Below, piece by piece: positions 1,768 through 28,900 of a stretch of 40,273 nucleotides of DNA. The position numbers were made by a program, and so were the translations under genes. The notes under the pieces are model-generated. The model made no database searches, was not told the DNA's origin, and worked only from the letters and a program-made list of their open reading frames with translations. The stretch is taken from NCBI GenBank assembly GCA_002269645.1, contig NIVC01004626.1, forward strand, positions 1-40,273, given 5' to 3'. The number at the start of each line of letters is the position of its first letter. Within the stretch, counting starts at the first letter, position 1. The DNA is from Macrostomum lignano. Taxonomy: Eukaryota.

Positions 1768-1917
1768 AACTGATTAAAAATCTTAAACAATTTGCGAATT
1801 CTTTTGGTCAACAGCCAACCTTAGCAGCATTCAATAAAACTCTGTCGAAAAATGAGTTGGCCTAGGCTAACCGCCTATTTCATCCATATGGTATTTTCTC
1901 TATTTACACTGTACGCA

Positions 1918-2581
1918 ACTACTAAGCAACGGCAGATGGCTCGATTTGCGAAGGTCCGTCGGGCTGATGTCGGCCTCTAGCACCGCGGCAAGGTGCTCCC
2001 TCGGGGTGTACACCTCCCCGGGGTGTACCTCCAGCGGGGTGGGTGTCCAGCGAGTGTACTCCAGCGGGGTGGGCCTCCCGCGAGTGTACATCCGGCCGGC
2101 TGGGCGTCCAGCGAGTGTACCTTCAGCGCATGGGCCTCCCTCGGGGTGTACATCCGGCGGGGGGATTCCCGCCCCTCCCACCAATGTCGTGTGCACGCGG
2201 TTAGTGTAGGAAGGAAACCCCCGATGCTGACGCAGCCCTGTACACTGAGCAACCGGCCCCCCATGCGGGGGACAGAGAGCAGCCCTGTAGCTGGGGACAG
2301 AGAGCAGCCCCTGTAGCAGGAGGGGTAGTGCGTGGAGAGCCGCCATCCCCTGTAGCAGGGGACAGATAACAGGCGACCCCTGTAGCAGTATGAGGTGGGG
2401 TACAAAGAGACACGGGGTGCTGGGACAGAGAGTGCGTGGAGGCACCCTGCGCTGCCCTGGCATGTCGCAGCACGCGGCGTGGACAGAGAGGGAGTGTGAG
2501 TCACACGGAGGGACAGAGAGCTTCCCCAGGCCGGGGTGGTAGAGGACAGACCGGCGGTGAGTGATAGAGAGCTCCCCCAGG
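1918..2581 (+). repeat. Left terminal inverted repeat (GC-rich, with internal ~31-bp and GGACAGAGAG sub-repeats)
   Basis: Reverse complement of 11799-12442. Differs mainly by homopolymer indels, one extra ~24-bp unit and a 9-bp sub-terminal block. Confidence 0.95.
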
Positions 2582-2671
2582 GCAGTAGAGGACTTGAAAG
2601 AAAAAACACGTATTTTAGTTGTTTCAGGTTCAGGCCATCCGGCAAACAGAGCAAAGCTCTCCAACAGTGTT

Positions 2672-3301
2672 TTATTTAGCATAAACTACGGGGTAGCGCC
2701 CCAACACATTAGCATAGTAGCGAACAGATGCGTTCTGCAAGCAATTAACAATCAAGTAGGAGTAGGGCTCCCTAGTGGCGTCTTCGTACATTTGAACAAA
2801 ACTTTTTGGGTTAGCGGGGACAAGCTGCTTTGCAATATGGCGCGACTGTACTAACGTCCCGTACATTGCGGAACAATACAAGGTAGTTTGCGTTAAGGGA
2901 TTGAGTGCGGTGCTCCTTGCCTTGGCAAACAGGTTTTGTACAAGGTACCAAAGCCGGAATCCCACATGGCTGACTTTGCGAGTGAAAAATGCGGTAAAAG
3001 CAGCGTTTTTTTCCATGGCTTGCATTTGATCATCGACAACGAGTAGAATATTCGGAGCGGGAACATAGGTTTCAGGGTTAAATGTAGACGAGCGAAAATT
3101 GACAGGGTACGGTAATTCAAACAGTTCCGGGTCTGGATAGTGCCCAAACCAATCAACGCGAACAGGCTTAGGGTCCTGAAAAAACTCGTTTCGCAGCAAT
3201 TCTTTAACAAGAGTTGTTTTTCCGCTCTGGTTAACACCAGCAAAAATCGCCGAAGTATTTGGAGCAAACTTTAGAGCGTCAGGATCAATTGTTTGGTACA
3301 T
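2672..3301 (-). CDS. FtsK/A32-like genome packaging ATPase (likely start ATG at 3301; two compensating frameshifts ~2917 and ~2850)
   Basis: Walker A GVNQSGKT, Walker B LLVVDD, then LVQNLF. The canonical segment GKEHRTQSLNANYLVLFRNVRDVS lies in an alternate frame between the two shifts. Confidence 0.88.
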   Translation of the reverse strand: MYQTIDPDALKFAPNTSAIFAGVNQSGKTTLVKELLRNEFFQDPKPVRVDWFGHYPDPELFELPYPVNFRSSTFNPETYVPAPNILLVVDDQMQAMEKNAAFTAFFTRKVSHVGFRLWYLVQNLFAKARSTALNPLTQTTLYCSAMYGTLVQSRHIAKQLVPANPKSFVQMYEDATREPYSYLIVNCLQNASVRYYANVLGRYPVVYAK

Positions 3302-3335
3302 TTTCAGGGCGAGTTGACACTCCAAATATTAAAAA

Positions 3336-3773
3336 CTATTTTATTTGTAGAACATGTTTTCGAACCATCAAATCATTTTCAAGCAGATTGGTAGAGTAAC
3401 ATTCCCTTAAAATCTTTTCAATCGACAACCCCTCTAAAAAGTGCTTTTCGGCCACAAAAATCACATGCGGCCCACACGCTACACTTAGAGGGTGTTGAAC
3501 AGGGTGGCGATTCATAGCAACAGGTGAATGTACATGCTTCGAGATCCAAGCCGAGAGCAATTCCGGCACGGGTTCAATACACAGAGGGTCAAAAAATGTC
3601 ACACTCTTATCATCGTGTAGGCAAATCAGTCCCCAGTGGGTGCCTGGCAGATTACCCGTGTCAAAATTAATTACATATGCAGCAGGGTAAACAGGTGCAG
3701 GAATTCTGTCGAGAGGGCAAACGTGCACTTCCACAGGTAGTTTTAAACACTCCAAAATTTCCAACGTGTTCAT
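3336..3773 (-). CDS. Adenain-like (adenovirus-type) cysteine maturation protease
   Basis: GTHWGL (His), FFDPL (Asp), PVQHPLSVACG (Gln, Cys) in the expected order; 145 aa. Confidence 0.9.
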   Translation of the reverse strand: MNTLEILECLKLPVEVHVCPLDRIPAPVYPAAYVINFDTGNLPGTHWGLICLHDDKSVTFFDPLCIEPVPELLSAWISKHVHSPVAMNRHPVQHPLSVACGPHVIFVAEKHFLEGLSIEKILRECYSTNLLENDLMVRKHVLQIK

Positions 3774-5050
3774 ACGTAGTCCAGAATGGGCTGGCGGCCT
3801 CTAGTGATTTGCACCGCGTTGTCAAAGTAACCAAACACCAAAACGTTAATCCCGGCAGGTAGGGCTGCAGAAAACTTTATCTGTAGGGTCAGATTCCCTC
3901 TCTCGCGAGGCATGCTATGTCCACCCAGTTCCATATCGGGCATTAGATTCCACGCAAATAAGCAGTAACCGGCGCGATAATCCGAATATGACAGGTCAAT
4001 GTCCAAATCGCGATTCATTTTCCCTAGGCTCTTAAACAGCATGGCGTATTCGCGAGCATAGTTTGGGCAGCGAACCTTGGAGTGAATGGTTGACCGCACA
4101 GACTGACACCGTCCTTGTACAGGGCCACACTGTCAGCCCAAATGGCTCGAAATTGAACGGATTATGGGTAGCCACCCCGTTATATGCGGCACTATTTACC
4201 ATCCCATAATGACAAGTTTAGGCTTCTGCTCCGGGAAAATATTATTGATTGACACGTCGCGAACTCCTACAGCGACAGAGGTGTTGTGTACAACGAGGCG
4301 CTCGATGGGGTAGACTGCATTCTGAGTTGCCAGCTGTTCTTCAATCTCCAAGGCCAGTTGGGGGTTAGCCTTTACCCGACGAACGTGTAATTTTGCACTT
4401 TGAAGAACCAACTTTGCATCAACCCCTTCGGCGTGATTCTCTACAACGAATCCCGAATTTTGCAGAGTGAGCGTAACCACCATATCAGTGTAGGGTAGCA
4501 GCATACGATCGTTGGTGACAAAAAAGTCGAGACTAAGAGGGCCATACAGGTGAAATGTTCGAGAACCGGCAGCCATCGCCTTGCGAGTTACAAAGCCAGG
4601 ATTTCCAACCGCAGCCATTTGACCCCCAGCGTCTTTAGCGTAGCCCATCATCCGCAGTTGGTTAGACTTTGAATCAGACCCATAACTCAAGCATGTACGA
4701 ATGTACGCCTTGTAGGCATGGTTGTTGTTGCTAGACTCGATATGTGTACCATTTATGGAAAGAGACACGTTTTTGAACATGGTCTCCAAGAGGTAATTGA
4801 TTGGCGCCACGTTTGAATCCGCCGCCAAATCGGCTCCATTAGCTCTTTTAATACAACCTTTAATCTCGAGATCAATGTCATTAAGATCGACAAACGTCTC
4901 GCCGCCCACAATTCTAAACTCAACCACACTCGCATTTTCGACGCTGGCAACCGGGTGGATTTCTTCAGTAGTTGAACCTACAGCGGCAATCTGGTGGGCT
5001 CGAGGGGCAAAGAGCTCAAACTCGGACTTTGTACACAGACACTCGGACAT
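3770..5050 (-). CDS. Major capsid protein (double jelly-roll, hexon-like), interrupted by three 1-bp frameshifts (~4200, ~4130, ~4065)
   Basis: N-terminus SEFELFAPRAHQ...VEFRIVGGETFVDLNDIDLEIKG is typical of Polinton MCP. The bridging frames read VNSAAYNGVATHNPFNFEPFGL and VALYKDGVSLCGQPFTPRF. C-terminus NYAREYAMLF...GYCLFAWNL...GNLTLQIKFSAALPAGINVLVFGYFDNAVQITRGRQPILDY. Confidence 0.88.
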
Positions 5051-5079
5051 GTTTAGTAGACAGACTCGATTCGGCGAAT

Positions 5080-5424
5080 CTAATTGAAGCGGGGCTTTTT
5101 ATTTATAGTGCTGAAAATGTCTGAATTGAGACGCTTCGGAGCCTTTTTTCTTCTTCGTCCGCTACCCCTTTGGGTAACCGTGTCTTTAAAGGCGTCCTTG
5201 GCAGCCTGAACAGAATTGCGCAGGACAGACTCCTTCAAATTGCCTCCTTGCTCGAGGCTATCGTTAACAGTAGTTGCTAGGGCTCTAGTACCATGACGGA
5301 GAACGTTTTTACCAAAACTCTTTAGAATTGGCAGCGCGAAGCGGGCAATGCTTCCAAACAAACCGTTGCCCCTCTGGGCGCCCGCGAAAACAGGCAAAGC
5401 TCCACCAATCAGAATAGAAGGCAT
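5080..5424 (-). CDS. Small basic/amphipathic virion-type protein resembling conserved Polinton/adintovirus ORFs (QRGxG motif)
   Basis: QRGNGLFGSIARFALPILKSFGK amphipathic helix, second QRGSG, basic C-terminus RRRKKAPKR; located between penton and hexon. Confidence 0.6.
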   Translation of the reverse strand: MPSILIGGALPVFAGAQRGNGLFGSIARFALPILKSFGKNVLRHGTRALATTVNDSLEQGGNLKESVLRNSVQAAKDAFKDTVTQRGSGRRRKKAPKRLNSDIFSTINKKPRFN

Positions 5425-5467
5425 GATTAAGCACTAGGATATAGTTTACTGAGGCTGTGCTGTTTAT

Positions 5468-6605
5468 TTATAGCTTCTTTTCGCGGATGTTAACGCTCAA
5501 GACGGTCTTGCCCCTCATTACTTTTGTCATATCCCTGCCCATATCATCGTTAATTTGTACTTCAATAGTTTTGAATGGGTGCTTAACCAGCGGTAGATAT
5601 GCCGGATTGACAAACTCGTAGTACTCGCGACCGCCCTGAACTTTGGGATCCATCGGTATAGCTCCCAACAGAGGAACTTTAACGTCTCCTACAATAACAG
5701 AATCGACTATGCTCGAATAGATGTACATTGTTTGTATTCCACCGGTTAATTCCATTGATGTGGCTGCCCCAAATCCGATATACCGAAAAATGGGGTTGTA
5801 TAATCATGCTCTGGGAAACCAAGCATGCGGTCAAGCGCCCCAGCCCAAACATGTAATCCATCGAGCCAATGTAATAACACCTATTCGTAACTTCGCTGTA
5901 TCCGAAAAAGTCCGTTCTAGGTGCTGGAGCCGCTATGAGATCTTTGATCCGTTTCCAAATTAAATTGTTGAGTTCCTCCACCATTCTTTTAGGTGTACTA
6001 TAGTATCCTCCCTGCATAAAAAATATTTGATCAGACGCTGCGCTAGTAACTTGTCTTATTATTGGAGCATGGTCCATTGACTGCACAGTCGGTTCCTCAA
6101 CAACTGCGGTGATGGAGGCTGCACACCCCGCGTGTAATACGAGTTCAGTAGGTAGATCCTCATTAGACTCGAAGCCGGCGACTAGTTTAAACACCTTGGG
6201 TAGGGTATCCGGGAATTTGATGCCGACGGTGGATTTTGAAGTATTCACAATCATAAAGGCGGTTGGGGATGTTCTTAAAAAGACAATTTTCTTATTATCC
6301 CCTTCAACGTATCGGATACCGTTTAGAAAGCCGGAAATACATTCTTCAGGGGTTTTCAGACCCGCTGCGAGACAAAGGTTTGCAAACGACGAAGCCGTCA
6401 AGAGGCCCTCCTGTTCGCGAATGGTGATCGGTATAGATTTTTTGAAAGATTCAAATTCTTTGGTAAAGTAGATCCGTTCGAGGCAAACCTCATGATTCGG
6501 AAAGTGGAGAGTGTCCGGTAAATTAATAAAATAATGAGCCGGATTATTTTCGGGATAGTGCTCGGGGCACGCATTGCTAGGCAGAAAGAGATGCATGGTA
6601 GCCAT
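5468..6605 (-). CDS. Minor capsid protein (penton-like), with one or two frameshifts at ~5770-5840
   Basis: N-terminus HLFLPSNACPEHYPENNPAHYFINLP...EVCLERIYF, an LDRMLGF segment in an intermediate frame, and C-terminus MYIYSSIVDSVIVGDVKVPLL...YLPL...IEVQINDDMG. These are Polinton penton-type motifs. Confidence 0.8.
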
Positions 6606-6608
6606 GCA

Positions 6609-7708
6609 TTAGTTATTATTACGTTGACGTATATTTATAACTTCATTTACAGGTACAAATGAATTAAAAGTGTCGGGATAACCGCGCCAGCTAACGTAAT
6701 GGTGCGCAACACCATTTATTAACACGTTTCTACGCAAAACTTTATTGATTACAAAACGCTCGGGTCGGGTAGATTTGGACAGTTCATTGTAGTAAAACCG
6801 TCCCTCAATCACTTCACCAGACAAATCAGAAATACGATAAAAATGTGGGGGTCCAGGACAAACTTTGGATATAATGTACACCTCCTCACTATACATGTCG
6901 TACGCCTCCTTGTCGAATGCCCGGCGAGATTTCGAAATTCTCACAAAATCCCCCTTTTTATATACGGGGTCGTCTTTTTGCTGATCCGGGTAGAGCTTTT
7001 CCCACACACGCTTCTGATTGTGGAACCCTACACTTGACGGTTTCATCTCAATAGTAGAATGCGTCGTGTTGTTGTAATTACCTACCAAATTGGTAAGTAG
7101 TCAACCCAACGCCACGTGTTGTTGTGCTCAAAGTAGCGAGCCAGACGCTTTCGAAGAGTTCTAATCAGCCTCTCGGCCATGTTTGCCTTGTACACAGAGT
7201 TGGTGCTGTACATTTTAACATTATTGTCTTTTAGTATGCGGCGCATTCGCTGATTATAAAACTCGGTACCCCGATCCACGTGCAGGTAAAGGGGGCGGGC
7301 AGGGAAATCATTCGCCAACATTGACTCAAACGCTGCGGGGGTATCACTCTTTAGTTTAATTGCCCTACAAAAAGCCTGCTTACTAAGCACATCAATAACA
7401 ACTAGTATATATTTATGTCCGTCATTCCAACGTTTGTATCGCGACATGTCCATCAAATCGGCTTGTAGAGTTTCCATGAATCCTCCCGACATTACTTTTC
7501 CCGTTTTAAATGTCCTGTTGACTCTCCGGTGACGGGTGTAACTCGGTTGGGTTTCTAGCCATTCCCTGGTTTGGCGTCTTGTCAGGTTTGGCGCCAGACG
7601 TTTGGCCTCCTGATAGACACGGGCAGCATTTGAAAAAGCGGCGGCTCCTTGTTCGTAAACTCGACGAAGAGCGGTTAGAGCCCTCATTGACAACAAGTGT
7701 GGATGCAC
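6609..7708 (-). CDS. Retroviral-like (rve) integrase with C-terminal chromodomain; one 1-bp frameshift at ~7090
   Basis: DDE triad: QADLMD, HVDRGTEF, AERLIRTL. YNNTTHSTIEMKP follows the shift. Chromodomain FVINKVL...YVSWRGYPDTFNSFVP. Confidence 0.92.
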
Positions 7709-7859
7709 AGCATGAATAGTTGCACGTAATGTCGGCTGGGGAGTTGTCTACACAAAGCTTTGATGCGGCGGCTGCTGCGCCCATGACCGCCGGGCGCGGT
7801 TATGTATGGATTAGGGTTCTATTTATAAAGAGTATCGTATTTTCGGTTCCGGGGCGGTC

Positions 7860-8441
7860 TTAGTTGGTAATCGTGATATTTACCCATCCCGGCACCTTGA
7901 TCCACAAGTTGGGCATAGCATTTACACCTTTGTTGCGCGTGGTCGTTAAATCGCGGGTGTCTGTCGCAATTGTGTGCTCATATTCATCGCGGTAATCATC
8001 GGTACCAACCATATGGTCAACCTTCTTTTCCTCCACAGGGAGCTGTTTCCGACCGAGCATAGACATTGGTATACGGGCCTTGTCTAGCAGAGCCCAGAAA
8101 GCGGTCGAATATTTCGGGTGATTATTAGTGTTGGTGGTGACGGCTTGTAGAAGATCAAAAACGTTGCTGCCACCCCAAGTTTCACCATCAAAAACGACTT
8201 CCCACGATTGGTTGTAATTTAGGCTGGGGTGCTTTTCTGTTAGTATATTCCATATACGTTGTTGCCTATCAGAAAATAGCTGCTTTGTCGTCTTTTGGGG
8301 TTTTACTTTAGCCAATTGGGTCTGTAGCTTTGCATTGTACTCTACAAGTTTTTCGTACTCCGATTTTGGGGCAATTTCTCGCGGAGTACCCTGTCTAAGC
8401 TGATTGAATTCCTCCTCGGGGACCACAACGTACTTGTCCAT
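7860..8441 (-). CDS. Conserved Polinton/adintovirus-type hypothetical protein (likely start MDKY at 8441)
   Basis: Coiled N-terminus and the segment YNQSWEVVFDGETWGGSNVFDLL...HPKYSTAFWALLDKARIPMSMLG, which resembles an ORF I recall from Polinton-like elements. Recognition from memory only. Confidence 0.5.
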   Translation of the reverse strand: MDKYVVVPEEEFNQLRQGTPREIAPKSEYEKLVEYNAKLQTQLAKVKPQKTTKQLFSDRQQRIWNILTEKHPSLNYNQSWEVVFDGETWGGSNVFDLLQAVTTNTNNHPKYSTAFWALLDKARIPMSMLGRKQLPVEEKKVDHMVGTDDYRDEYEHTIATDTRDLTTTRNKGVNAMPNLWIKVPGWVNITITN

Positions 8442-8443
8442 TT

Positions 8444-8833
8444 TCAACGTCGTTGTCCTAGCAGACCGCCAAACAGTCCAGTGATTAACGGAGCAGCAAT
8501 CTTGGCGAGAATTGGTAGGAATCCTCCAACTTGAGGGTCCGATAGTATCATATTCTTCTTCCTATTTATAGACAGTTTTTTGTCGGCCATGTCATGCAGG
8601 GCTTCTCTATAACGTTTCAACCTTGCAAACTGTCTAGGGGATAGATCGATATTGCCCTTGAGTACATTGTGGCTTAACTCGCACAGACACTGCATCAACT
8701 CATTATCGGCTCCCCTAATAATGGCCCTCCTTCGATGTGGTCGCGCGTCACCGAGCTCCTCTAGCTCGCGACGGCAAGAACAAAGACGAGAAATTCCGTT
8801 TGTCATTATTAAGGTGGTAAGCATTGCGTGCAT
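8444..8833 (-). CDS. Conserved small protein with C-terminal amphipathic helix (QxGGFL motif), putative membrane-active virion protein
   Basis: CLCELSHNVLKGNIDLS...LKRYREALHDMADKKLSINRKKNMIL...QVGGFLPILAKIAAPLITGLFGGLLG matches the pattern of a widespread Polinton/adintovirus ORF. Confidence 0.6.
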   Translation of the reverse strand: MHAMLTTLIMTNGISRLCSCRRELEELGDARPHRRRAIIRGADNELMQCLCELSHNVLKGNIDLSPRQFARLKRYREALHDMADKKLSINRKKNMILSDPQVGGFLPILAKIAAPLITGLFGGLLGQRR

Positions 8834-8871
8834 ACATGTGCATATTTTGTTTATTTATAAGCAAAGCATAA

Positions 8872-9390
8872 TTAGAGTTGCAGAATAGCAGTCACGTGGT
8901 CGTACATTTTACACAGTTCGTCATAGTTTCGTATTCCTAGGAACACTAACCGACCATTCTTTCCGCACAGCAGGCACTTGGCCTTGCGGAATGGGGACTT
9001 TATTACAAGCCCATTGAATACCTCACTCTCCCACTCAACCCAGCGCGAGCTCGAGTTGGCAAGGCGGAAAAAGTTTGGCTTAACATTAACTTCTGCACGA
9101 TAAGTACCGGTAGTGATAACAACAGAGTTTGGTTTACATTGAGCAAAAAGACGCAGCACATCGTTGGTTGATTGGCAACCAAAAACAATGGCAGATAATG
9201 AACGTTTGAAAAAGTTTATTGTACACTTTCCGATCCTCAGGTTGTACAATGCCCGGGGTCTATGAAACGTTCTAGCGCGCGCCCAGTCCAAGTTCGGTAG
9301 GTGGTTCCACCTTGCGCAAAACACCCTGTTTACGCACACGACGTTCTGCAAGCGGTTTTTTCGGTTGCTTTTGTTTCCGCTCAGCTCCAC
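8872..9390 (-). CDS. Divergent TATA-binding-protein (TBP)-like protein; no in-frame ATG found
   Basis: Collinear by-eye alignment with both TBP repeats: RLQNVVC vs QLQNIVS; AIVFGCQS vs MVCTGAKS; EWESEVFNGLVIK vs SYEPELFPGLIYR; GRLVFLGIRNYDELCKMYDHVTAIL vs [25 protein letters not shown]. The ~160-aa core is the right size. Confidence 0.7.
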   Translation of the reverse strand: MELSGNKSNRKNRLQNVVCVNRVFCARWNHLPNLDWARARTFHRPRALYNLRIGKCTINFFKRSLSAIVFGCQSTNDVLRLFAQCKPNSVVITTGTYRAEVNVKPNFFRLANSSSRWVEWESEVFNGLVIKSPFRKAKCLLCGKNGRLVFLGIRNYDELCKMYDHVTAILQL

Positions 9391-9985
9391 CAGCTCCGCG
9401 CTTGCGTCCTACCTTGATTTTTAACGGTGGAATCCAGTAGCAGCGGTCAAACGCCTGCTTGGGAGCTTCTATGAATTGCAGTTGTTGAATTTTTGGTACC
9501 GCGGTTAGAACCGAGTCGTGAATCACCGCCGTGTCTAGGGCGAACAGTACTCTATAGTAGCCCGTCTTGTTCTTGTAGTCGGTGCACAACTTGCCGCTCT
9601 TGTCGTACATTTTAAAGTCGTGAGCCAATCCGAATGCAGCGCTGTCGCAGCCAAAAGTGGGGTTGTACCCCAATAGCGCCATTCCTTGGATAGAGAGCTG
9701 GTGACACACGGAATTGAACGCTTCTGGTATGCAGCTCTCCAAGTGCTTTTGGGAAAGAATGATGAATTCGCGGCCTTCATTGTCGGTTCTCACACCCTTG
9801 ACAATCAGTACGGGCGTCGCATTGGCAAGATAGAGAGGGCCCTGTTCGTCGTACTCAATGTCGTACGTCTCGGTTCCGTTGTAGCTTGGACCTCTCGACT
9901 TGAGAGAGAATAGGTCGATCCTAACACTATTGTAGTCTTGAACGGTATCCATGTTGCTGCTGCTGTTGCTGAGAGTGGGTCTCAC
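9272..9985 (-). CDS. Hypothetical protein, possibly an OB-fold ssDNA-binding protein, with a basic tail
   Basis: 237-aa ORF, beta-rich, ending in a YRVLFALDTAVIHDSVLTAVPKIQQLQFIE strand pattern reminiscent of viral SSBs. TATATAA upstream at 10001-10007. Confidence 0.35.
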   Translation of the reverse strand: MRPTLSNSSSNMDTVQDYNSVRIDLFSLKSRGPSYNGTETYDIEYDEQGPLYLANATPVLIVKGVRTDNEGREFIILSQKHLESCIPEAFNSVCHQLSIQGMALLGYNPTFGCDSAAFGLAHDFKMYDKSGKLCTDYKNKTGYYRVLFALDTAVIHDSVLTAVPKIQQLQFIEAPKQAFDRCYWIPPLKIKVGRKRGAGGAERKQKQPKKPLAERRVRKQGVLRKVEPPTELGLGAR

Positions 9986-10043
9986 ACCCTGAGCGCCTCC
10001 TTATATACCCTTGGGCGGAGGGTGGGGTGGCTGGGCGTTTTTG

Positions 10044-10559
10044 TTATAGTGCTTCTTTAACGACACTTTCCGGTGTTGGAAATCCGGAAAAAATAAACCT
10101 TTTGTTTCGATCTTCTGGTCGAGGGGTTTGAGGCGTGTCGTTAATGCAGCTGCAGTGAGGGTTGATAGTCAACTTCGCTAGCACTGGTCTACTGTGTTTA
10201 GGTCGCCAAATCCTTTGGTGTTCTGTCCACGAGGGAGCAATCGGCTGGTGATTCCGGTACCGTATTTTCTCACGATGATCCTCTTGTAATATTGGGGCAA
10301 TTATCTGCTCCATTCTTTGAAGATTGGCTTTGAAATGCATCTTGTCTCTAAAGTAGTAGTCAATTCGGGCATCTGTATATTCTTGGGTGCTGTAAGGCCC
10401 TTGCCCAATTTCGTCTACCTCGACATTAAAGGTGACTAATCGTTCGGGAATTGGTTTGCCGTGACAAATGCATAACCAGTCTGTGGACTTTTTCAGGGTC
10501 TCGTACTCTGCCCTTTCTTTGCTCGATAAAAGCGGGTAGTCTCGAGAAATCCAGCTCAT
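10044..10559 (-). CDS. Hypothetical protein (171 aa)
   Basis: Co-oriented ORF filling the gene array; ATGA overlap with the upstream ORF stop. No recognised motif. Confidence 0.55.
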   Translation of the reverse strand: MSWISRDYPLLSSKERAEYETLKKSTDWLCICHGKPIPERLVTFNVEVDEIGQGPYSTQEYTDARIDYYFRDKMHFKANLQRMEQIIAPILQEDHREKIRYRNHQPIAPSWTEHQRIWRPKHSRPVLAKLTINPHCSCINDTPQTPRPEDRNKRFIFSGFPTPESVVKEAL

Positions 10560-10933
10560 TCCTCTGACTCGTCAGATTCGTCGAGAAAGAAATAGTGGAA
10601 GAAATTGTCGACTCTATTCTTTTCAACTGCACAAAGTATTTTGTCTGACAGGTGAAATTCGCAGTCTCCTTTTACGTACAGGCGCTTCCCGTCGATAACT
10701 TTGATAGATGCGCCGCCTCCGAGATCGTAATCTGTGCAGCTAGTGCCCAGAAATTTCATTCGATGCCATTGTGCTCGACTAAACACGGCTCCTGGACAGC
10801 TACAGTTTTGACAGTGGATGCGGAAACGCGGTTTGTTTGGGTCCCAATATCCCACTTCCAGCACTGCGTTGTCAACGTGGGTGTACACTATTTCCGATTG
10901 CCAGTACATTTCGATATTGTTGAGAAATACCAA
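10556..10933 (-). CDS. Hypothetical protein, possibly PC4-like (likely start MYWQ ~10909), acidic tail
   Basis: LEVGYW...RFRIHC...PGAVFSRAQWHRMK resembles the PC4 strand/G-x-x-x-x-x-QW helix pattern. TATA box about 30 nt upstream of the internal ATG. Confidence 0.4.
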   Translation of the reverse strand: MVFLNNIEMYWQSEIVYTHVDNAVLEVGYWDPNKPRFRIHCQNCSCPGAVFSRAQWHRMKFLGTSCTDYDLGGGASIKVIDGKRLYVKGDCEFHLSDKILCAVEKNRVDNFFHYFFLDESDESEE

Positions 10934-10943
10934 TTTTATTTAT

Positions 10944-11741
10944 TTATAGGCTGCCGTCTGAACAGATTTCCAACCATTCCCTCCACTGTAGAACGGTTCT
11001 CTCAATTGATAAAAGTAAATACGCCGCTAGGAGCCCCCGGTTGCTGCTGCGCGCTTCGTAAAGACAGTTGAGATATGTGTCTCTATTTGCATACGCAAAT
11101 GATACGGGTTCTGGCAGAATCCGGTTGATCAACTTTGATAATAACAACCTAGCAGTTCTACCATTGCCGTCGCTAAAGGGGTGTATGGTGAGAAACTTTT
11201 CTAGGAAATATGCTCCTGTCACTACTGCATCACGCAAGATTTGTGGCTCTTTTATGTCTCTAGTTAATTTTACCAGCTGCCGTTCAATATTTTCTGGGGC
11301 ACTGTAATACATACTCGCGCCTGCTGGCTTGGCGTGCTTAATTCTATACGATCCTGCATTCGGGAGCAGTCCTCTGCACACGCGTGTGTGAACTTGTCTA
11401 ACAAACTCTGTGTCAATTAACCCCCTCGTGTCATTGAGGTGTATTGCCGCACTCCATAGATTGGCTGTGACCATACAGGACCGGGTTTTTATCGCTTCTT
11501 CTGCTTCCTCCCAAGTCAACGCCACCTCTCTCTCCTCAATGTTTACTTCAGTTACGAATGCCAGCCGGGCTAGATACGTGAATTCTAAGCGCTCCTTTGC
11601 GGTCAATCCCTCGATTCTTTTCCTAGTGTCTGATAACAATCTTTCAATGAGGGGTAATCTGGCGCGCACGCTCTCGTTGCTGAAATAGGGGTTATCAGTT
11701 ATACCCTCTTCCATGTTCTCCATACAGAGGGTTTTGTACAC
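10944..11741 (-). CDS. Fic (Fido) domain protein, putative AMPylase
   Basis: Complete catalytic motif HPFSDGNGRTAR. Upstream QVHTRVCRGLLPNAGSYR is typical of Fic. N-terminal EVNIEE...ALTWEE resembles the inhibitory helix of HYPE-class Fic proteins. Confidence 0.92.
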   Translation of the reverse strand: MYKTLCMENMEEGITDNPYFSNESVRARLPLIERLLSDTRKRIEGLTAKERLEFTYLARLAFVTEVNIEEREVALTWEEAEEAIKTRSCMVTANLWSAAIHLNDTRGLIDTEFVRQVHTRVCRGLLPNAGSYRIKHAKPAGASMYYSAPENIERQLVKLTRDIKEPQILRDAVVTGAYFLEKFLTIHPFSDGNGRTARLLLSKLINRILPEPVSFAYANRDTYLNCLYEARSSNRGLLAAYLLLSIERTVLQWREWLEICSDGSL

Positions 11742-11798
11742 TGCTTCTATTTATGGTTGCATTAACACGTTGCTCGCGGCCTGTCTGTCCCTCTGCAG

Positions 11799-12442
11799 CC
11801 TGGGGGAGCTCTCTATCACTCACCGCCGGTCTGTCCCTCTACCACCCCGGCCTGGGGAAGCTCTCTGTCCCTCCGTGTGACTCACACTCCCTCTCTGTCC
11901 ACGCCGCGTGCTGCGACATGCCAGGGCAGCGCAGGGTGCCTCCACGCACTCTCTGTCCCAGCACCCCGTGTCTCTTTGTACCCCACCTCATACTGCTACA
12001 GGGGGCCGCCTGTTATCTGTCCCTTGCTACAGGGGGATGGCGGCTCTCCACGCACTACCCCTCCTGCTACAGGGGCTGCTCTCTGTCCCCCGCATGGGGG
12101 CCGGTTGCTCAGTGTACAGGGCTGCGTCAGCATCGGGGGTTTCCTTCCTACACTAACCGCGTGCACACGACATTGGTGGGAGGGCGGGAATCCCCCCGCC
12201 GGATGTACACCCCGAGGGAGGCCCATGCGCTGAAGGTACACTCGCTGGACGCCCAGCCGGCCGGATGTACACTCGCGGGAGGCCCACCCCGCTGGAGGTA
12301 CACTCGCTGGACACCCACCCCGCTGGAGGTACACCCCGGGGGAGGTGGTACACCCCGAGGGAGCACCTTGCCGCGGTGCTAGAGGCCGACATCAGCCCGA
12401 CGGACCTTCGCAAAATCGCGCCATACGGAATCCCTTAGTAGT
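11799..12442 (-). repeat. Right terminal inverted repeat
   Basis: Reverse complement of 1918-2581. Confidence 0.95.
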
Positions 12443-12598
12443 TACGCACGATGTACTCAAATAATATATCTCCGCCAAACCCCCAAAATTTTCACCTCTG
12501 TTTAAGTTAGAAAATATAAAAGCTGAATTCTGGGCTGCGACCGCCCTAACTTCGTTTTCTTTATCGTCAGCCAAAATCAATTATTGGTTTATTCTTTA

Positions 12599-12611
12599 TG
12601 GCGCCCAAACA
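12599..12611 (+). other. BEL primer-binding site (tRNA-Lys-like TGGCGCCC)
   Basis: TGGCGCCCAAACA directly follows the 5' LTR end and resembles known tRNA-Lys PBS sequences. Confidence 0.7.
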
Positions 12612-13171: not shown

Positions 13172-16150
13172 ATGGTTCTCAGTGAAGACGAGCTATCTTC
13201 AGCAGTCAGGAAGCGTGCAGGTATCCGCGCGGCGATCACGAAGGCTGTTGGAAAGGCTGACCATCTTCTCTCCGTGGATATTGGTCGAGCTGCTAATCGT
13301 GCGGATGCGGAGGCAACTGTGCAGATTCTGAAGTCGAAATTGACGGCAGTGCAAGCATTGGATGAAGCCATAGAGGAGTCTGTAGCTGAAGAGGGGCTGG
13401 ATGCTGAAGTGGAAGAGAATCAAACTTATTCGATGAAGTGTATCAGCTTAATCAAGATGCTGGAAGCAACTTTCAATAGTCAACAATCGCCGGAGGAGTC
13501 AGCGGCCAAAAGTCATTCCGTAGAGTCCGGTCGCAGATCAAGCTTCCCAAGAGGCAAATCCCGACATTCACTGGGGAGATTTCGGCGTGGCAGTCATTTT
13601 GGGATCAGCTCAACTCTTCCATACATCGCAACTCTAGCCTGTCAGATATAGACAAGTTCAACTATCTCGTCAGCTCTCTGTCCGACTCAGTCAAGGCAAG
13701 CATTCGAGGCCTGTCAGTCACGGCGGCCAATTATTCAATAGCCTTAGATATTTTGCGAGAGCGCTACGGAAAGAAAGAAATCATAGTCAAGGACTTAATG
13801 CACAAGATATCTGAACTTCGTCTTCAGGACTTATCTCTAAAGTGTCTTCAGCAGTTTCACGACGACACAACTGCCAGCATGCGCAGCCTGGAGACTCAGG
13901 GTTGTAGTGTGAGCATCTTTTGTGAATTCTATTAGCTAGTTTCTATATTGTTGTTAATAATAATTATTTTTCTTTAATTTAGTTACGCGGTCTAATGTAC
14001 TTTTTCTTGTTAGTTAGAGTTTACTTTGCGTAAACAGGGTAAAAGTCAGACGCCAATTCTGTGACTCAGCGGAGGGTTGAAGTTTCTGCAAACCCCAGCT
14101 TTGCGCGGCCAGCCAATCAGAACCGGCCTGGACCCTGGCACGCGGCAAAATCCAACTCTACCCGGCGCCGCGGGCTCAGTGCAATTCAGCTTAGCAAGCG
14201 GCCGGCCAGACGACCACCACCCGGCTTGAGGGGGGTTTTGAGGGGTCTGACAATGACTATATATGAAAGTGTGTTTGGCGGTCGGATCTCACCCCTTTTT
14301 TTCCCGCTTCCGGTTTTGTTCCAACTTCCCGGCCGTTTTGCCCTATTTTGGTTCCGCGCTTTGAGGCGCTCAATTTCATCACCCCCGGTCCGTGTTTACT
14401 CACTGCCCGACCGCTTCAGTCTTGTAGCGTAACGTCTCGGCAATCCTTGTCTGAAGTCGTCGCTATTAAGCGCGGTCTAGATAGAGACTGACGGATTCGA
14501 TCAAGTACGTGGCCTCGACCCGAGGGCCTCAGTGTCACACTGAAGGGCAGCGCTGATAGAACTTAGTCAGTGCTCCGCTGAACAGTCGATTCGTCAGGGC
14601 TCTCGTTCGAGCGTAGGTTCTGGTTAGGCCAGTGTTTAGGAATCTTCTCCGTGGTCCTGTTCGGTTTTTCTTCTTCAAGCTGAGATCCGCTCGCCAGTGC
14701 GTTATCTAACTAATTAATTGATTATTATCGTTATTGTTCGTTTATCAGTGCTCGGAATTTAATTGCGTTGCGAAATTGTAGTAAGGATTGTAATCAACTT
14801 GACGTCATTTAATTAAATCGTCTGAGTCCATTACTCATTAGCTATTCTTACTAGGATTATCACTCTCTAAATCTATTCGGATCGTTTTCACCTGTGTTCT
14901 TCCTTTTCTTGTACCGTACTGCGACTATTTGAGAAAGATTGGTAGAACTCGCCGACCGGCGATAGGCAATAGGGCCAATAGTTTTAAAATCTCTGAACGC
15001 TCCAAAAATAGGTTTGTCTAGGGCCTAAACTATTGCTTTTCGTGCATGCTATTTATTTAATTGTATTTATCACAGGGTGTTGCCGCGGAATCGTATCAGT
15101 GTCTGCTGGTGCCAAGTCTAATGAACAGGTGCCCTGCTACATTCGACTCGACTTGATTCGGTCAGCTCAACTTCAGGGAAAACTATTGACACGCTTGGCA
15201 GCTTTCTGTGTTTTTTGAAGAATGAAATTTCTGTGCATGAGTCCGCTGGATCGCAGCTCAGCCACAAGTCAACTTCACAAGCATCTCATTCAGAGTCAAA
15301 GCAAGCTTCAAACTCATCAATGTCAATGGCATCAACACTGGTAGCAGTGCAACCGAAAGCACCAGACGCTACGAAAAAAATGTTTTGCACCTATTGCAAA
15401 GCTTTGCATCATTCGGAAATTGCGTGGAGTTCCCGACCGTGGCGTGGCGTGGACAATTTCTGGTGAAAGAGAAGCGGTGCTTCAAGTGCCTGCGGCCTGG
15501 TCACATGGTTCAACAGTGTCGCGATCCGCGGAAATGCCGTGATTGCTCCGGCAAGCATCACGTAAGCATCCGTGCTCAAGGCGTGTCTCGTAAAAAATCT
15601 CCACCTAAAGGTGAACGCCACAACGGCTTCTGGTTCCTCCGACAGCAAAGACAGCAAGGGTTCCTCCGGCTCAAAAAATCGATCTCAGTGTCTCACAGTT
15701 ACGGCCGACGATGAGGCCTCTCGTTCACGTCCTTCGTCTTCAGACTTGCATGGCTCGGAAACAAGGACCACATCATCACAGTTGGAAGCCAGCTCGCTCG
15801 TCATGTCAATGTTTATCTCTGAAAATCCCTCGGTAGCGCTACCAGTTGCCAAAGCTATTCTCTTGAGCGCCGACGGTCGCAGAGAAATGATGGTGCGCGT
15901 CCTTCTCGAAACAGCAAGTAATCGTAGTTATATTCGAAAGGATGTTTGTGAGGCTATGGGTTTTGGTGCGGAAATGACTGAAAATCTGAGTGTCTCATCC
16001 TTCTCTGGCCTCAACACAGACATTTAATCGGGCTGTGTAAGGTTTTCGTAGCGCAAACTCGATTCCTTTGAGACAGTTGAACTCCAGGCAAACATTGTTG
16101 AGACTATTTGTCAACCACAGCGATCTGTGAGGGTCAATGAATTCCAACAT
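13172..16150 (+). pseudogene. BEL gag plus aspartic protease region, frameshifted and interrupted by an insertion
   Basis: KLPKRQIPTFTGEISAWQSFWDQ...LRERYGK gag motif. Cys-His knuckles CTYCKALH and CFKCLRPGHMVQQCRDPRKCRDCSGKHH. Protease site VRVLLETASNRSYI has Glu in place of the catalytic Asp. Confidence 0.85.
13903..15074. mobile_element. Probable solo LTR (~1170 bp, TGT...ACA) inserted in BEL gag
   Basis: Flanked by a duplicated GGGT (13899-13902, 15075-15078; could be read as 6-bp CAGGGT). Removing it restores the frame LETQGVAAESYQCLLVPSLMNR. Confidence 0.75.
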
Positions 16151-20164: not shown

Positions 20165-20381
20165 TGTCGAAAAAATGAGTTGGCCTAGGCTAGCCGCCTA
20201 TTTCATCCATAAGGTATTTTCTCTATTTTCACTGTACGCACGATGTACTATCTCCGCCAACCCCCAAAACTTTTCACCTATGTTTAAGTTAGAGAATATA
20301 AAAGCTGAATTCTGGGCTGCGACCGCCCTAACTTCGTTTTCTTTGTCGCCAGCCAAAATCAATTATTGGTTTATTCTTTAA
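20165..20381 (+). repeat. BEL 3' LTR (217 bp, TG...TA)
   Basis: Follows the PPT, matches the reconstructed 5' LTR, and is followed by TSD AACTC. Confidence 0.93.
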
Positions 20382-20548: not shown

Positions 20549-20730
20549 AACAGAATTTCTGTGTGTTCACTGGCCTGACCAACAGAATCTCTGTGTGCTC
20601 ACTGGCCTTAGCCTGACCAACAGAATCTCTGTGTGCTCACTGGCCTTAGCCTGACCAACAGAATCTCTGTGTGCTCACTGGCCTTAGCCTGACCAACAGA
20701 ATCTCTGTGTGCTCACTGAACTGACCAACA
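20549..20730 (+). repeat. 38-bp tandem minisatellite (~4.5 copies, AACAGAATCTCTGTGTGCTCACTGGCCTTAGCCTGACC)
   Basis: Direct reading of head-to-tail units. Confidence 0.9.
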
Positions 20731-20790
20731 GTGAACTGACCATCAAATAATGAAATTTTTTCTGTTTTCTTACCTCTGCTCTTCTGTGAA

Positions 20791-21242
<452 letters not shown>

Positions 21243-21741
21243 AAAACAGATTCAGACTAGCTTTGGTAATAAAAGATGGATTTTTTCTACCTACCAGAAT
21301 AATCTTGCCTCGATAAGCTGAAGGCTTATAAATTTAGCTAATTGCTGTATTGAAAAGTGCCCAAGTTATGTTGTGTCTCAGATAGCTAGTTGGATTCAGG
21401 ATATGCGTGCGATACCTACTGCTTTCAGTAATATCTCACCCAGTGCAATTATCAGTTCTGTCATTGTCATTGAAACTACAGGATAAATAACTACAGCAAT
21501 GCCAACTCCAATGGCACAGTTCTATCTGTCTCGTGCATTATTAACTGCCATTGCGATAGAAACTTTGCTATCCAATCCAGTTGCACGCCCAGATTATTCC
21601 AGTTCATTTGAGCTCATTAAAATGCTGGATGCATTGGCGGCTTTTACTCCACGCCACACAAACTTCTATTAGCTAGTCACAGTTTAACTCTAATTAGAAA
21701 AAACTGTCTGCATCCTAGCTCAGCATTCTCGCTCCTAATTG

Positions 21742-24700: not shown

Positions 24701-25439
24701 TTGGGCCATAGACTACTTTGACTAGGCGAAGCCACAGAGTCTCTGTGTCCACTTTTGAAAGCCCAGAGTGGAAAATTGACTGCAAAAAGCGATACTTGTT
24801 TGCAGGCTTGGAATATCAGCTTCAAAAATCAAAGTTTGTCAACTCTCAGTCCCTCCAGCACCTTGCTAAACCCGACTGAGATCAGGCCCGGCAAGCAATT
24901 GATCATTAAGATAAAATCGCGCCTAATTAATCCACTTTTGATAATAGTAAGCACATAATTCCAGACTCGAGGCCGATGCGCATTCCGCTTGGCAACAGCC
25001 TCACGAATTCGATGCAGGGTCCTTACTGCTTCTACTTTGACAGCACCCAGCTCAGCGCCTACTACTGCGGCGTTCCGTTCTGTGGTAACGCAGTTTTATT
25101 TTTATCTACATGCATATTCGAGCTACATCTAGTATGGTCATTCAGGAAACTTGAAATGCAAGCTGGGAAGGTAATTAGTGTTGAAACAAACTGGCGATCC
25201 AATTCGATCAATAACTTGATTTCACGACAAAGCAAATTTAATTCACTGAAGTAAATTTACGCTGCCGTGAAGCACTGTTATGACGTGTGCCTGCAGATAC
25301 ACTGTAGTGTTTTAACAGCTCATAAATAACTCACTCACAAGTCGTAAGCCAAACTTTGAGCCAAGCCAAGCCAAGCCAAGCCAAGCCAAGCCAAGCCAAG
25401 CTGAGCCAACTAACTAACTAACTAAATAACTAACTAACG

Positions 25440-25478
<39 letters not shown>

Positions 25479-25495
25479 GAACTAACGAACTAACG

Positions 25496-25541
<46 letters not shown>

Positions 25542-25567
25542 ATTACTAACTAAATTACTAACTAACG

Positions 25568-25605
<38 letters not shown>

Positions 25606-25632
25606 ATAACTAACTAACTAACTAACTAAATT

Positions 25633-25689
<57 letters not shown>

Positions 25690-25690
25690 G

Positions 25691-25727
<37 letters not shown>

Positions 25728-25775
25728 GACTAACTAACTAACTAACTAACTAACTAACGAACTAACGAACTAACG

Positions 25776-25809
<34 letters not shown>

Positions 25810-25875
25810 ATTACTAACTAACTAACTAACTGACTAACTAACTAACGAACTAACTAACTAACGAACGAACGAACG

Positions 25876-25954
<79 letters not shown>

Positions 25955-28900
25955 GAACTAACGAACTAAATAACTAACTAACTAAATTACTAACTAACTA
26001 ACGCAGCATGTTAAGTTAAGATTGCCTTTATCATGTTTACTAGTTATTGTCGATAGAGTTATATTATACAATTTCGAATAAAAATTCATACAGGAGCCAA
26101 CGAGAACCACGACTGCGTCCCGAGCCAATCTGAAAAGGTGGCGCCAGACCAGACCGAGCTGGCGCACTACACCGGCTTCCGGAACGTCACAGTGACTGGG
26201 AAGCCTTGCGTGAACTGGAGAAACTTGCAAAATATTAGTCGAACGATCGAAGGTTATGGTAAGCAGCTTTCTCAAGAAATATGAGCAGTAAGCAGCAGAG
26301 TGATGAATGGCAATGAATTTTAGCGTTCCCTTTGTACTTTTATATTAGAGGCAGGGGCTGTGTGCACCCTGGCACACTTTAAGCGACATTGTGAAGAACT
26401 TTTATCCAAGACACAATGACAAGTCTAAACGGGCACTATTACACCATTCAGCGACTCCATCGGCAGATTTTTCCAATTGATAAGACTGATGATTTTACTA
26501 AACTAATTAAAAATTTCTTATTAGGTTATTGACTCGCTTATAATATTATCTGATTGTCAGTTCAACTTTCCCTCGCCACGCGTAATCAATGTACATCTTA
26601 CTCTCTGCCCAGGTGACCAATCAGTTCACCTACCCCATCTCTCCTTCAATTAAATCAAAATTAAAAGCATGAACTAATGGCTCAAGAGTACTCCTGTGAT
26701 CACACAGTTTGTACATCAAATTTGATTCCTTAGTGTGATTTGGTGGCCCATTCGTTGACAATGTGAATGAGCAGTTGGCGTTTCCTTTTTTAAAAGCAAG
26801 TTGGTAAGAGACTAGCAATAGCTTCGATTATTGGCCTGTGGGGTTGTTCGATTTTCGCTAACGAGAGACATCTTTTTAGGAGAATTTTAAGAGCATTGAT
26901 AATAACGATTATGAATAAGGCATGCTAGATGTACTCCTCTCTGTAAGTGTCGGTGAGCAGAGTAAACATAGTCGTACTTACCTGCCTGCCTTGTAGACTG
27001 TGACCAGAAGTCTCAAGCTCACTCCGTCGGTACATGTACTTCTATTGGCTGAATCAAATCTCAGTGCGGCATTCTGATGTGCTTATCATAAATCGAAACC
27101 TTGAATAAACTTTTAGTTTGGAACGCATCCAGGACTTTTCTGCAAATGCCGGATTCTGTCGGATTCAGCGATCACAATTACTGCCGGTCGGTCAGCCACG
27201 TCCAAGAGAACATCATCCATATCTACGGCAGTCTAAAGTACGCTATTCATCTCTTCTAAGGGTGTCTCATAATAACTGTTTATCTCGTTATGTAATGTGA
27301 AAAAATTCAGTACATTTTTGCATTTCTATGTACTCGTATCAGGAAAATTCGATGGACTCTGGAGTCGAGCCTGACTCCCGGGTGCTATGTCTATACACCG
27401 GATGAAGAAAACATTTACACGTTCAGAACCTGTAGCATTCCGATGTGCTGTGAGTTTGTTTTTTTAAATTCATAGCTAAATTCGAAACAAAATATATTCT
27501 ATTCTCAGGAGACTTAGAAGAAAAGTTTGGGCTTTGCTAAGAAAGGGCACGCGAACTTAGCCCGAAAATGGACGCAAAGTATCGGTGTCACTGTCAGATC
27601 CCGCTATGAATGCAGAATCATCGAAAATCCCATAATGATGAATTTCTATTTGTTGGTTAAAGACACCGAGAGCCCGAGCATCACAGGCGCGATCCGGCAT
27701 TCCATTGGCACCGACCTACTGGAACGCCAGTTCGGCAGCAATCTGGACGTGAGCCTGACGGACTGCAGTTTTGGCGGGCAGAAGTGCACACAAGATGACT
27801 TCTTGAATATGCTGCATCCTCAGTTGGGTCTGTGTCACCGCTTCAAAGCCGATCGGTTCGTGGCTGGCATAAACAATGTCCAGCTGGCCAACTCGGAGCT
27901 GTCAATCACATTCTTCACTGACGCCACCGACTCATTTGGACGAGCATTCAACAACATAAGCAAACTGGAGGCCGGAGTCCGGCCCAATGAGATGCTGGCG
28001 GATGAAACCAACAATGCGCTCAAGGTGAATTTAAAAAGACTGGAAAAATAATTCACTGTTAGGGTGTTTGTGCTGAGTAGGGTGCTTGACTGCAAGTTTT
28101 CCGCCTCAAAACTAATGCGACATTCTTAGCTTTTAGGATTAGTTAGTTGGAATAATTGAAAACGATCCAGACTCTTCAAGCCTTTTCAAACTTTAAAACC
28201 ATAAAAGTGATCATTGGCTGAGCAAGGCAGCGAGCAATGGTGCAGCGCCTCGAACACCGGAGCTCTATGATCATAAGAGCTCAACAATTCTTACACTCGG
28301 CCTTGCAAACTGAGTAAAAAGATCTCTAGAAGGATAGAGTGGAAAAAGAAAAGAAAAAGTCACTTCCCAATAAAATCGATAAAATCGAAGGAGATTAGAA
28401 AAATTGACCAATTTCTTAAACCTGAGACAATATTTTCGTGTCCTTACTGCATAACTCAATCCGTCTGTATGAGATGCAAGTACTGGTAGATAATTAACGC
28501 CTAAAACACATAAATTACAATCGCCTCATGAGGCAAATGAGGAAGGTAACAAACCAAAATTACAGCCGAAGTAAACTGAGATCCGTTTCCTTTTGGGTGG
28601 GAAGTCAGTTTTATGCTGCTTTAAGCACCTTCTTTCATCCGCGAATTGCTTCAGGTGATTATCCTGCCGCAAGGCGAGTTCCCCGACTCCTCGTACGCTT
28701 TTGAAGTAGATCCAGCGCAGCTCGTGGTGATCCGACTGCGTTATGACCGCGTGACCAAAATTTCGCGCTCGGAGCTGCCCTGCAAGAAGTTAGAGGCTCC
28801 AGTCACTTACCGGATGTCTAGCTGGGCCAGCGCTCGTGATAAAAATTTAACAAAGTATGCCGGTTAGACCTTCATAATACTCAATATTATAATTTACATT

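Follow-up and report, generated by a model that had tools for sequence, protein, structure and literature searches.

The 10.5-kb element at positions 1918-12442 of Macrostomum lignano contig NIVC01004626.1, whose 40,273 nucleotides form the window analyzed here, probably represents the capsid-plus-integrase half of a bipartite Polinton (we put the probability at roughly 0.7). The other half is a separately integrated element that would supply the family B DNA polymerase that is primed by protein (pPolB) in trans. The evidence comprises complementary gene sets, separate integration, cognate and exchanged ends, splicing and purifying selection. We refer to the capsid-and-integrase elements as families A and B, to the polymerase elements as P1 and P2, and to gene-less elements with the same ends as U1 and U2. 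The window copy (G000:C4626) belongs to family A.

Open reading frames (ORFs) of the window element tile positions 2672-11723, all on the minus strand, in the order Fic, ORF117, ORF171, ORF226, TBP-like, ORF129, ORF193/208, integrase, penton, ORF114, major capsid protein (MCP), protease and ATPase (Table 1). The initial annotation had listed an ATPase, a protease, a hexon, a penton and an integrase, all of which are present: the integrase is recognized by the Pfam rve profile, while the other four owe their identities to tblastn homology with canonical Polinton genes of the same genome, not to Pfam. The MCP has no match in Pfam or PDB, its assignment reflecting sequence homology and not a predicted fold; an intact MCP of 427 codons is found in 15 of 23 family A stretches. 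The claim that a DNA polymerase is absent was borne out as well, as Pfam profiles detected no pPolB in the 15 ORFs plus 17 more frames of 7509-11416 (32 frames), and no polymerase remnants in 7700-11750, where the annotation had proposed to look for them. The same 32 frames gave no match above cut-off to a helicase or other replication gene, and the element gave none to a tyrosine recombinase. Among the non-structural labels, Fic stands and TBP-like stands weakly. The SSB label of ORF226 found no match in Pfam, PDB or Atlas (two AlphaFold models had pLDDT confidence scores of 32 and 37 and were unusable), and no search supported the PC4 label of ORF117. The TBP-like frame has no in-frame ATG near its start in the window copy; one B copy has such an ATG. 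In the window copy the MCP, penton and integrase frames are all interrupted by frameshifts. A duplicate of this locus with identical flanks (C4635) is separated from the window copy by 5 substitutions and 28 gap openings, with frames interrupted elsewhere; few substitutions, many gaps and other break sites indicate that many of the frame breaks are likely assembly errors.

The polymerase-less layout recurs throughout the genome. An MCP query of the genome contigs, for which 137 of 341 candidates were scored so that counts are lower bounds, returned at least 20 full-length matches at 98-100% for family A and at least 26 near-full-length matches at 84-86% for family B. Twenty copies fetched whole are colinear apart from deletions or insertions, with lengths of 10.5 kb for A and ~10.1 kb for B, the latter family having neither Fic nor ORF117. 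Stretches of family A are 98-99% alike, and family B stands at 88% in MCP. Sister copies carrying pPolB, which the initial annotation had suggested seeking, were not found: none of 41 A/B stretches matches pPolB exons or queries, indicating that the window element is not a deletion derivative. Between A and B, the 10 shared genes display a nonsynonymous divergence (dN) of 0.07-0.50 and a synonymous divergence (dS) of 1.6 to saturated, with values of 0.066 and 2.3 for MCP. These 10 genes, together with five P exons, are under purifying selection. A copies differ by 2-70 substitutions over ~8.9 kb (seven pairwise comparisons). Taken together, the colinear copies, the lack of pPolB, the dN/dS values and the near-identity of A copies indicate that the layout lacking a polymerase is old and under selection and has been mobile recently. 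In a quick tree, built without MCPs of Polinton-like viruses (PLVs), the A and B MCPs group with three relatives on one long branch. No MCP or pPolB relatives were found in viral_contigs, and a metagenome scan with MCP returned only distant Polintons, at 25-40% MCP identity. ENA/Logan proteins P0001-P0003 and P0164-P0168 are 76-81% like MCP and 46-56% like ORF226, which at the sequence level shows further lineages of the capsid half elsewhere.

Elements that carry a pPolB and share the ends of the window element, which had also been proposed as a search target, do exist. A PF03175 search of the genome contigs gave 119 matches, one of them inside an 8.45-kb element bounded by terminal inverted repeats (TIRs), with ACTACTAAG ends and a 6-bp target-site duplication (TSD). 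P-type pPolB accounts for at least 108 matches, found at 96 places that span 87 contigs after 107 of 179 candidates were scored; 35 of the 96 places were classed. The P elements are separately integrated, TIR-bounded and flanked by 6-bp TSDs, and fall into two families, P1 with sizes of 8.5-10 kb and P2 of ~9.6 kb. The families are 54-74% identical per exon, with dN of 0.21-0.46 and dS of 1.6-4.8 over five exons. Besides pPolB, 20 of 22 P1 stretches carry a small minus-strand ORF with weak PC4 matches (Pfam E 0.15, PDB E 0.47); some P1 copies (G000:C491 L075-L076; C307, C41) have an extra ORF of ~338 aa beside it. No capsid, ATPase, protease or integrase genes lie inside the P elements of the 35 stretches, the capsid-side match in one of them deriving from a canonical Polinton that hosts the P insertion. 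One P1 element (G000:C4072:14540-22994) is located inside the MCP gene of a canonical-type Polinton from another family.

The pPolB gene consists of seven exons, totaling 1276 codons plus stop, and six GT-AG introns. Its exons match PF03175 (E 1e-17 and 5e-13), polymerase motifs A, B and C each span a GT-AG intron, and five intron positions are common to P1 and P2. Across 22 P1 stretches, GT is present at every located donor site (18-21 of 22 per site) and AG at the acceptors in 19-22 of 22, with one CA; the intron 3 acceptor probed in this survey lies 21 bases downstream of the one used by reads. Contigs from three studies (runs X1, X5 and X8, probably RNA) contain GT..AG joints at introns 1-5, the intron 4 joint in X1 and X8 only, and intron 6 is joined in one X8 contig. 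Run X17 has a depth of 0 at all five joints listed. UniRef models of Macrostomum lignano are 98-99% identical to P1 exon 4. By eye, exon 3 shows a Cys motif and exon 4 a His motif, which would fit a vOTU protease following the terminal-protein domain, its position in such polymerases (PMC11161782). P is thus predicted to encode a full terminal protein (TP)-vOTU-pPolB. The polymerase appears pPolB2-like and contains, again by eye, a VSR-like insert motif known from marine pPolB2 (PMC10748475). In a quick tree, P1 and P2 polymerases stand together on a long branch.

The termini pair these classes. After removal of six duplicate loci and of two matches that were false or off-class, the nearest end of an A end belongs to P1 in 26 of 26 cases and that of a B end to P2 in 24 of 24. 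The exact first 19 bases are in common six times between A and P1, twice between B and P2 and never across systems, and two complete 27-mers are common to A and P1. Between A ends, positions 8-27 differ by 40% and positions 32-91 by 0.4%; the two ends of the same element are non-identical in 16 of 33 elements. This pattern suggests that terminal variants are swapped between partner classes. A GC-box/TATA motif is likewise present in 23 of 23 A, 19 of 22 P1 and 8 of 13 P2 stretches. The TSD is perfect in 34 of 36 A, B and P elements having both ends. The ends read ACTACT or ACTACG (ACTAC type), while six canonical Polintons of this genome end in AGTAGT and lie at least 10 of 27 bases away from every A end, which speaks against them as helpers. 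Three canonical AGTAGT Polintons (G000 contigs C393, C114 and C754) are also variable just inside the terminus, hinting that variable termini could be a general property of the genome.

The same ends also bound elements with no genes. Searching the genome with patterns for the two end types returned 248 and 242 matches, against 1 and 0 for controls. Eighteen otherwise unexplained end pairs were fetched; of these, 16 prove to be inverted-repeat elements of 6.7-9.6 kb without genes (nine U1 and seven U2 among the matches listed; for example G000:C530:311892-321106 and C903:100813-110172, L223-L227 and L231-L233), and 15 of the 16 have a perfect TSD. They are 71-100% palindromic, with 91-100% for U1 and the ~9.4-kb U2 and 71-79% for the shorter U2. 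Each pair, A-P1 and B-P2, has its own U class: exact 19- and 27-mers are common only to the own system, the class being partly one of construction since its members were picked via end patterns. Pfam gave no match in eight U-element frames. Gene-less elements with these ends and TSDs show that integration occurs in trans; they are also candidates for a source of hairpin RNA or interference. A further element between cognate ends (G000:C843:284969-294324, L254) is a mosaic of U1 pieces, an A TIR and a P1 polymerase fragment, pointing at recombination among the classes. In another (G000:C558:43471-53355, L255), cognate ends and a TSD surround two tandem Gypsy-like retrotransposon copies, candidate cargo carried or trapped between U1-type ends.

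No element uniting capsid genes with pPolB was found among 41 A/B, 35 P and 31 further stretches. The A/B marker ORF226 occurs on 67 contigs and P-type pPolB on 87, with four contigs in common on which the markers are at least 43 kb apart. Nine over-long elements with these ends (12-34 kb), two of them from the 18 end pairs above, were considered as monopartite parents and rejected: all are single-class with foreign DNA inserted, seven carry long ORFs of other transposons, and none unites capsid genes with pPolB. The canonical Polintons examined carry a polymerase type other than that of P. A tblastn comparison of P and A/B with canonical polymerases as queries was near-blind across types (best E 0.017), its five long queries included two that are not pPolB, and it was not used. 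A multi-copy element on G000 contigs C2506, C2322 and C925 (L044-L046, L127-L132) encodes a 1206-aa pPolB with protease-like and penton-like ORFs; no TIR and no match to the integrase query were found for it, and it appears to be a distinct Polinton-like or adeno-like family.

In protein-primed replication, a terminal protein primes synthesis at the ends of linear DNA. For the bipartite Polinton, we propose that host Pol II transcribes the P element and that the TP-vOTU-pPolB polyprotein would be cleaved into terminal protein and polymerase, which would prime strand-displacement replication at any linear DNA with a cognate end, whether A, P or U. All three would be inserted by the integrase encoded in A, leaving 6-bp TSDs, and molecules of 7-10.5 kb would be packaged, one per particle, by ATPase, MCP, penton and protease, likewise encoded in A. 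Displaced strands of different classes probably anneal or switch templates via their common ends, which would account for terminal variants moving between partners. The U elements would be free riders, defective and copy-back-like passengers. Whether the whole amounts to a multipartite double jelly-roll (DJR) double-stranded DNA (dsDNA) virus, with segments packaged and integrated separately, a rapidly shuffled 27-base end code through which the segments recognize one another and which separates two sister viruses within the genome, and palindromic defective-interfering DNA in each system, we consider an even bet.

The initial annotation had offered two ways for the element to replicate. As a helper-dependent satellite it would borrow pPolB in trans, and this part is supported; the lender is not a canonical autonomous Polinton, but rather the capsid-less, integrase-less P. 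Since the lender itself has neither capsid nor integrase and bears the same ends, the dependence looks mutual, hence bipartite, and not that of a satellite on a helper. The other proposal, host replication with investment in transcription control instead, is not supported, as TBP-like and PC4-like genes are also carried by the pPolB-bearing canonical Polintons C291 and C393. The arrangement could have originated by fission of one ancestor or by partnership of an alpha-type-like capsid module with a pPolB2-like replicon; polymerase swaps occur in nematode Polintons (PMC10748475).

Several points weigh against a bipartite Polinton. Particles, episomal DNA and complementation are predictions. Runs X1, X5, X8 and X17 are RNA by guess and were assembled as contigs, and their evidence covers P1. 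All 12 tested frames are unbroken in just one of 23 A stretches. The sub-terminal TIR of B resembles P1/U1 rather than P2, and the promoter-like motif is missing from B (0 of 18 stretches), so that the pairs are not perfectly clean. Quick long-branch trees leave deeper branching unresolved and cannot show common ancestry of the capsid and polymerase halves. The end-pair follow-up drew on 100 of 248 and 100 of 242 matches listed, and the searches scored part of the candidates, which leaves room for a rare monopartite parent.

Alternatively, A and P might constitute a two-component transposon whose parts complement each other inside the cell with no particles today, the capsid genes being relics of a recent viral phase. 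The predicted status of the virions and the broken frames of most assembly copies speak for this explanation, as does the fact that trans-mobilizing the gene-less U requires polymerase and integrase only. We nevertheless regard it as unlikely: the A-B comparison shows purifying selection on MCP, penton, protease and ATPase, the A copies are young, and A, B, P and most U lie within 6.7-10.7 kb, as a packaging limit would produce.

Slightly less likely again is one-way parasitism, where A/B would be copied by canonical pPolB or host enzymes and P would be a selfish replicon imitating their ends to gain access to integrase and capsid. Several pPolB-bearing canonical Polintons are indeed present in the genome, and the capsid-module order is like that of metagenomic alpha/pPolB1-like Polintons, yet the enzyme of P is pPolB2-like, and the two halves may therefore differ in origin. 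The distance between canonical and A ends and the missing replication genes of A argue against such copying, and the exchange of terminal variants by A and P1 implies co-replication. Moreover, the pairing has outlasted the A/B and P1/P2 splits, which show similar saturated synonymous divergence. A last reading, in which the elements are non-autonomous deletion derivatives of the ordinary kind whose monopartite Polinton parent was unscored or is absent from the assembly, is very improbable, even though polB-less derivatives of complete polintons are known in Pieris mannii (10.1101/2025.02.07.637071) and the genome searches give lower bounds. Both halves are kept as such in two deeply diverged lineages with genes under selection, the P elements have a TIR interior of their own, their six introns are shared or spliced, and no joint element was encountered among the 41, 35 and 31 stretches.

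The boundaries of the window element, ACTACTAAG...CTTAGTAGT, agree with the perfect TSD and long TIRs originally described. TACGCA flanks the element on both sides, outside TIRs of ~660 bp, and the boundaries are fixed by a copy of the target repeat that runs through with one TACGCA. The TIR arms are mostly identical; they diverge through indels of single bases, through one gap of 26 bp and in the variable terminal block, where the left end differs from the opposite end at 8 positions. The element is nested in a repeat (flanks 1848-1917 and 12449-12600) with a second, empty copy in the window (20171-20380); relative to this copy, a short additional duplication lies immediately right of the TSD. 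A target-site preference was not apparent, flank matches being found only between duplicates of one locus and in one tandem repeat. Elsewhere in the window, a host-gene exon at 1400-1717 encodes a fibrinogen C-terminal domain (Pfam E 2e-5), a gag-like ORF at 13172-13651, right of the element, presumably resembles BEL/Pao, and tandem arrays occupy 20573-21330, 25260-26100 and 30481-30832, with units of 38, 14 and 8-12 bp, respectively.

Table 1. Features of the capsid-and-integrase element and its target site in the window
Feature	Position	Strand	Basis and remarks
Left TSD, TACGCA	1912..1917	none	Identical to right TSD
Left TIR, ~660 bp	1918..2581	+	TIR alignment
Left terminal 27-nt block	1918..1944	+	7 fixed bases, then hypervariable stretch from a pool common to P1 and U1
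Packaging ATPase	2672..3301	-	tblastn matches with canonical Polinton ATPases (E 1e-17 to 1e-28); Walker A and B recognizable
Adenain-like cysteine protease	3336..3773	-	His, Asp and Cys motifs visible; weak C48 match, E 0.06; tblastn homology
MCP, hexon-like	3770..5050	-	tblastn homology; frameshifted in window copy
ORF114, basic, 114 aa	5080..5424	-	Position before MCP kept in metagenomic Polintons
Minor capsid protein, penton-like	5468..6605	-	Homology; frameshifted in window copy
rve integrase, C-terminal chromodomain-like part	6609..7687	-	Pfam rve E 5e-10, Chromo E 0.07; frameshifted in window copy
ORF193/208	7860..8441	-	Homologue in canonical Polinton C291
ORF129, conserved Polinton core gene	8444..8833	-	Homology
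TBP-like frame	8875..9303	-	Pfam TBP E 1.3e-4; PDB TBP matches
ORF226	9272..9952	-	Within this genome only in A/B elements
GC-box/TATA promoter-like motif	9998..10033	-	Precedes ORF226; recurs in P elements
ORF171	10044..10559	-	Present in A and B
ORF117	10556..10909	-	Family A only
Fic-domain gene	10944..11723	-	Pfam Fic E 7e-14; family A only
Right TIR	11799..12442	-	TIR alignment
Right terminal 27-nt block	12416..12442	-	Another variant from the same pool
Right TSD, TACGCA	12443..12448	none	Identical to left TSD
Paralogous empty site of target repeat	20171..20380	+	Single TACGCA, uninterrupted

Polintons are generally regarded as monopartite. By definition they encode pPolB and rve integrase together in one element (PMC5499653), a combination that neither A/B nor P holds singly and that only the A-P pair provides. 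Within the literature covered, the genome layout appears to have no precedent: a segmented Polinton is not mentioned in the excerpts of PMC11131425, 10.64898/2026.10.13.758929, PMC12166617, PMC10159356 and PMC12474326, and no report of a bipartite Polinton or of Macrostomum Polintons was found, with Repbase, supplements and most subscription papers outside the scope. If the reading is correct, multipartitism would reach Polinton-type viruses in the form of a split, integrating dsDNA virus, and germline integration would remove the usual multipartite cost, as both halves always share a cell. The idea that multipartitism arises by cheating could be put to a natural test here. With two cognate pairs whose variable ends are distinct, the genome would also provide a readable specificity code for terminal-protein priming. 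A spliced, probably transcribed pPolB in a laboratory flatworm would make the long-open question of Polinton virions approachable, and "degraded" polymerase-less or capsid-less Polintons of other genomes may be partners.

Family A resembles Polintons/Mavericks (adintoviruses, Eupolintoviridae) in its rve integrase, DJR-type MCP, penton, ATPase, adenain protease, long TIRs and 6-bp TSD, and metagenomic Polintons in the core order ORF129-integrase-penton-ORF114-MCP-protease. The P polymerase is predicted to have the TP-vOTU-exonuclease-palm layout of Polinton pPolB (PMC11161782). Unlike in canonical Polintons, pPolB and integrase are here on separate elements, and the hypervariable shared terminal block and gene-less palindromic passengers set the system further apart. 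The ends are 5'-ACTAC..GTAGT-3', as opposed to (AGT)2, (AG)3 or (AC)3A, and six spliceosomal introns interrupt the P pPolB, in contrast to the intron-free state of intact vertebrate Mavericks (PMC8097293). Introns in such elements are not unprecedented, given the introners inside dinoflagellate polinton-like elements (PMC12166617). The polB-less polintons of Pieris mannii are mobile without polB, as is A, but coexist with highly similar complete polintons (10.1101/2025.02.07.637071); none was found here among the stretches examined, where a dedicated polymerase-only partner is present instead. Transpovirons and linear plasmids are, like P, capsid-less replicons of polinton descent (PMC11161782); P differs in integrating with 6-bp TSDs without an integrase of its own and in having ends common to one capsid family. 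PLVs frequently have no pPolB, as is the case for A (PMC5499653), which in contrast to them has an rve integrase and no helicase or tyrosine recombinase match.

By analogy, A and P would work like the segments of a bidnavirus, yet the pair does not appear to be a bidnavirus. Bidnaviruses are not known to have an integrase, while here an rve integrase is present and both halves integrate. Bidnaviridae (bidensoviruses) share with the A-P pair two segments with matching termini and pPolB on one (PMC8502044), but have single-stranded DNA and parvovirus-like capsids (PMC4061559) in place of dsDNA and Polinton-type virion genes. Complementary halves, each without the shareable gene products of the other, agree with the cheating model of multipartite viruses (PMC10159356). 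In contrast to known multipartite viruses, the halves described here are dsDNA and are held together by germline integration in one host genome.

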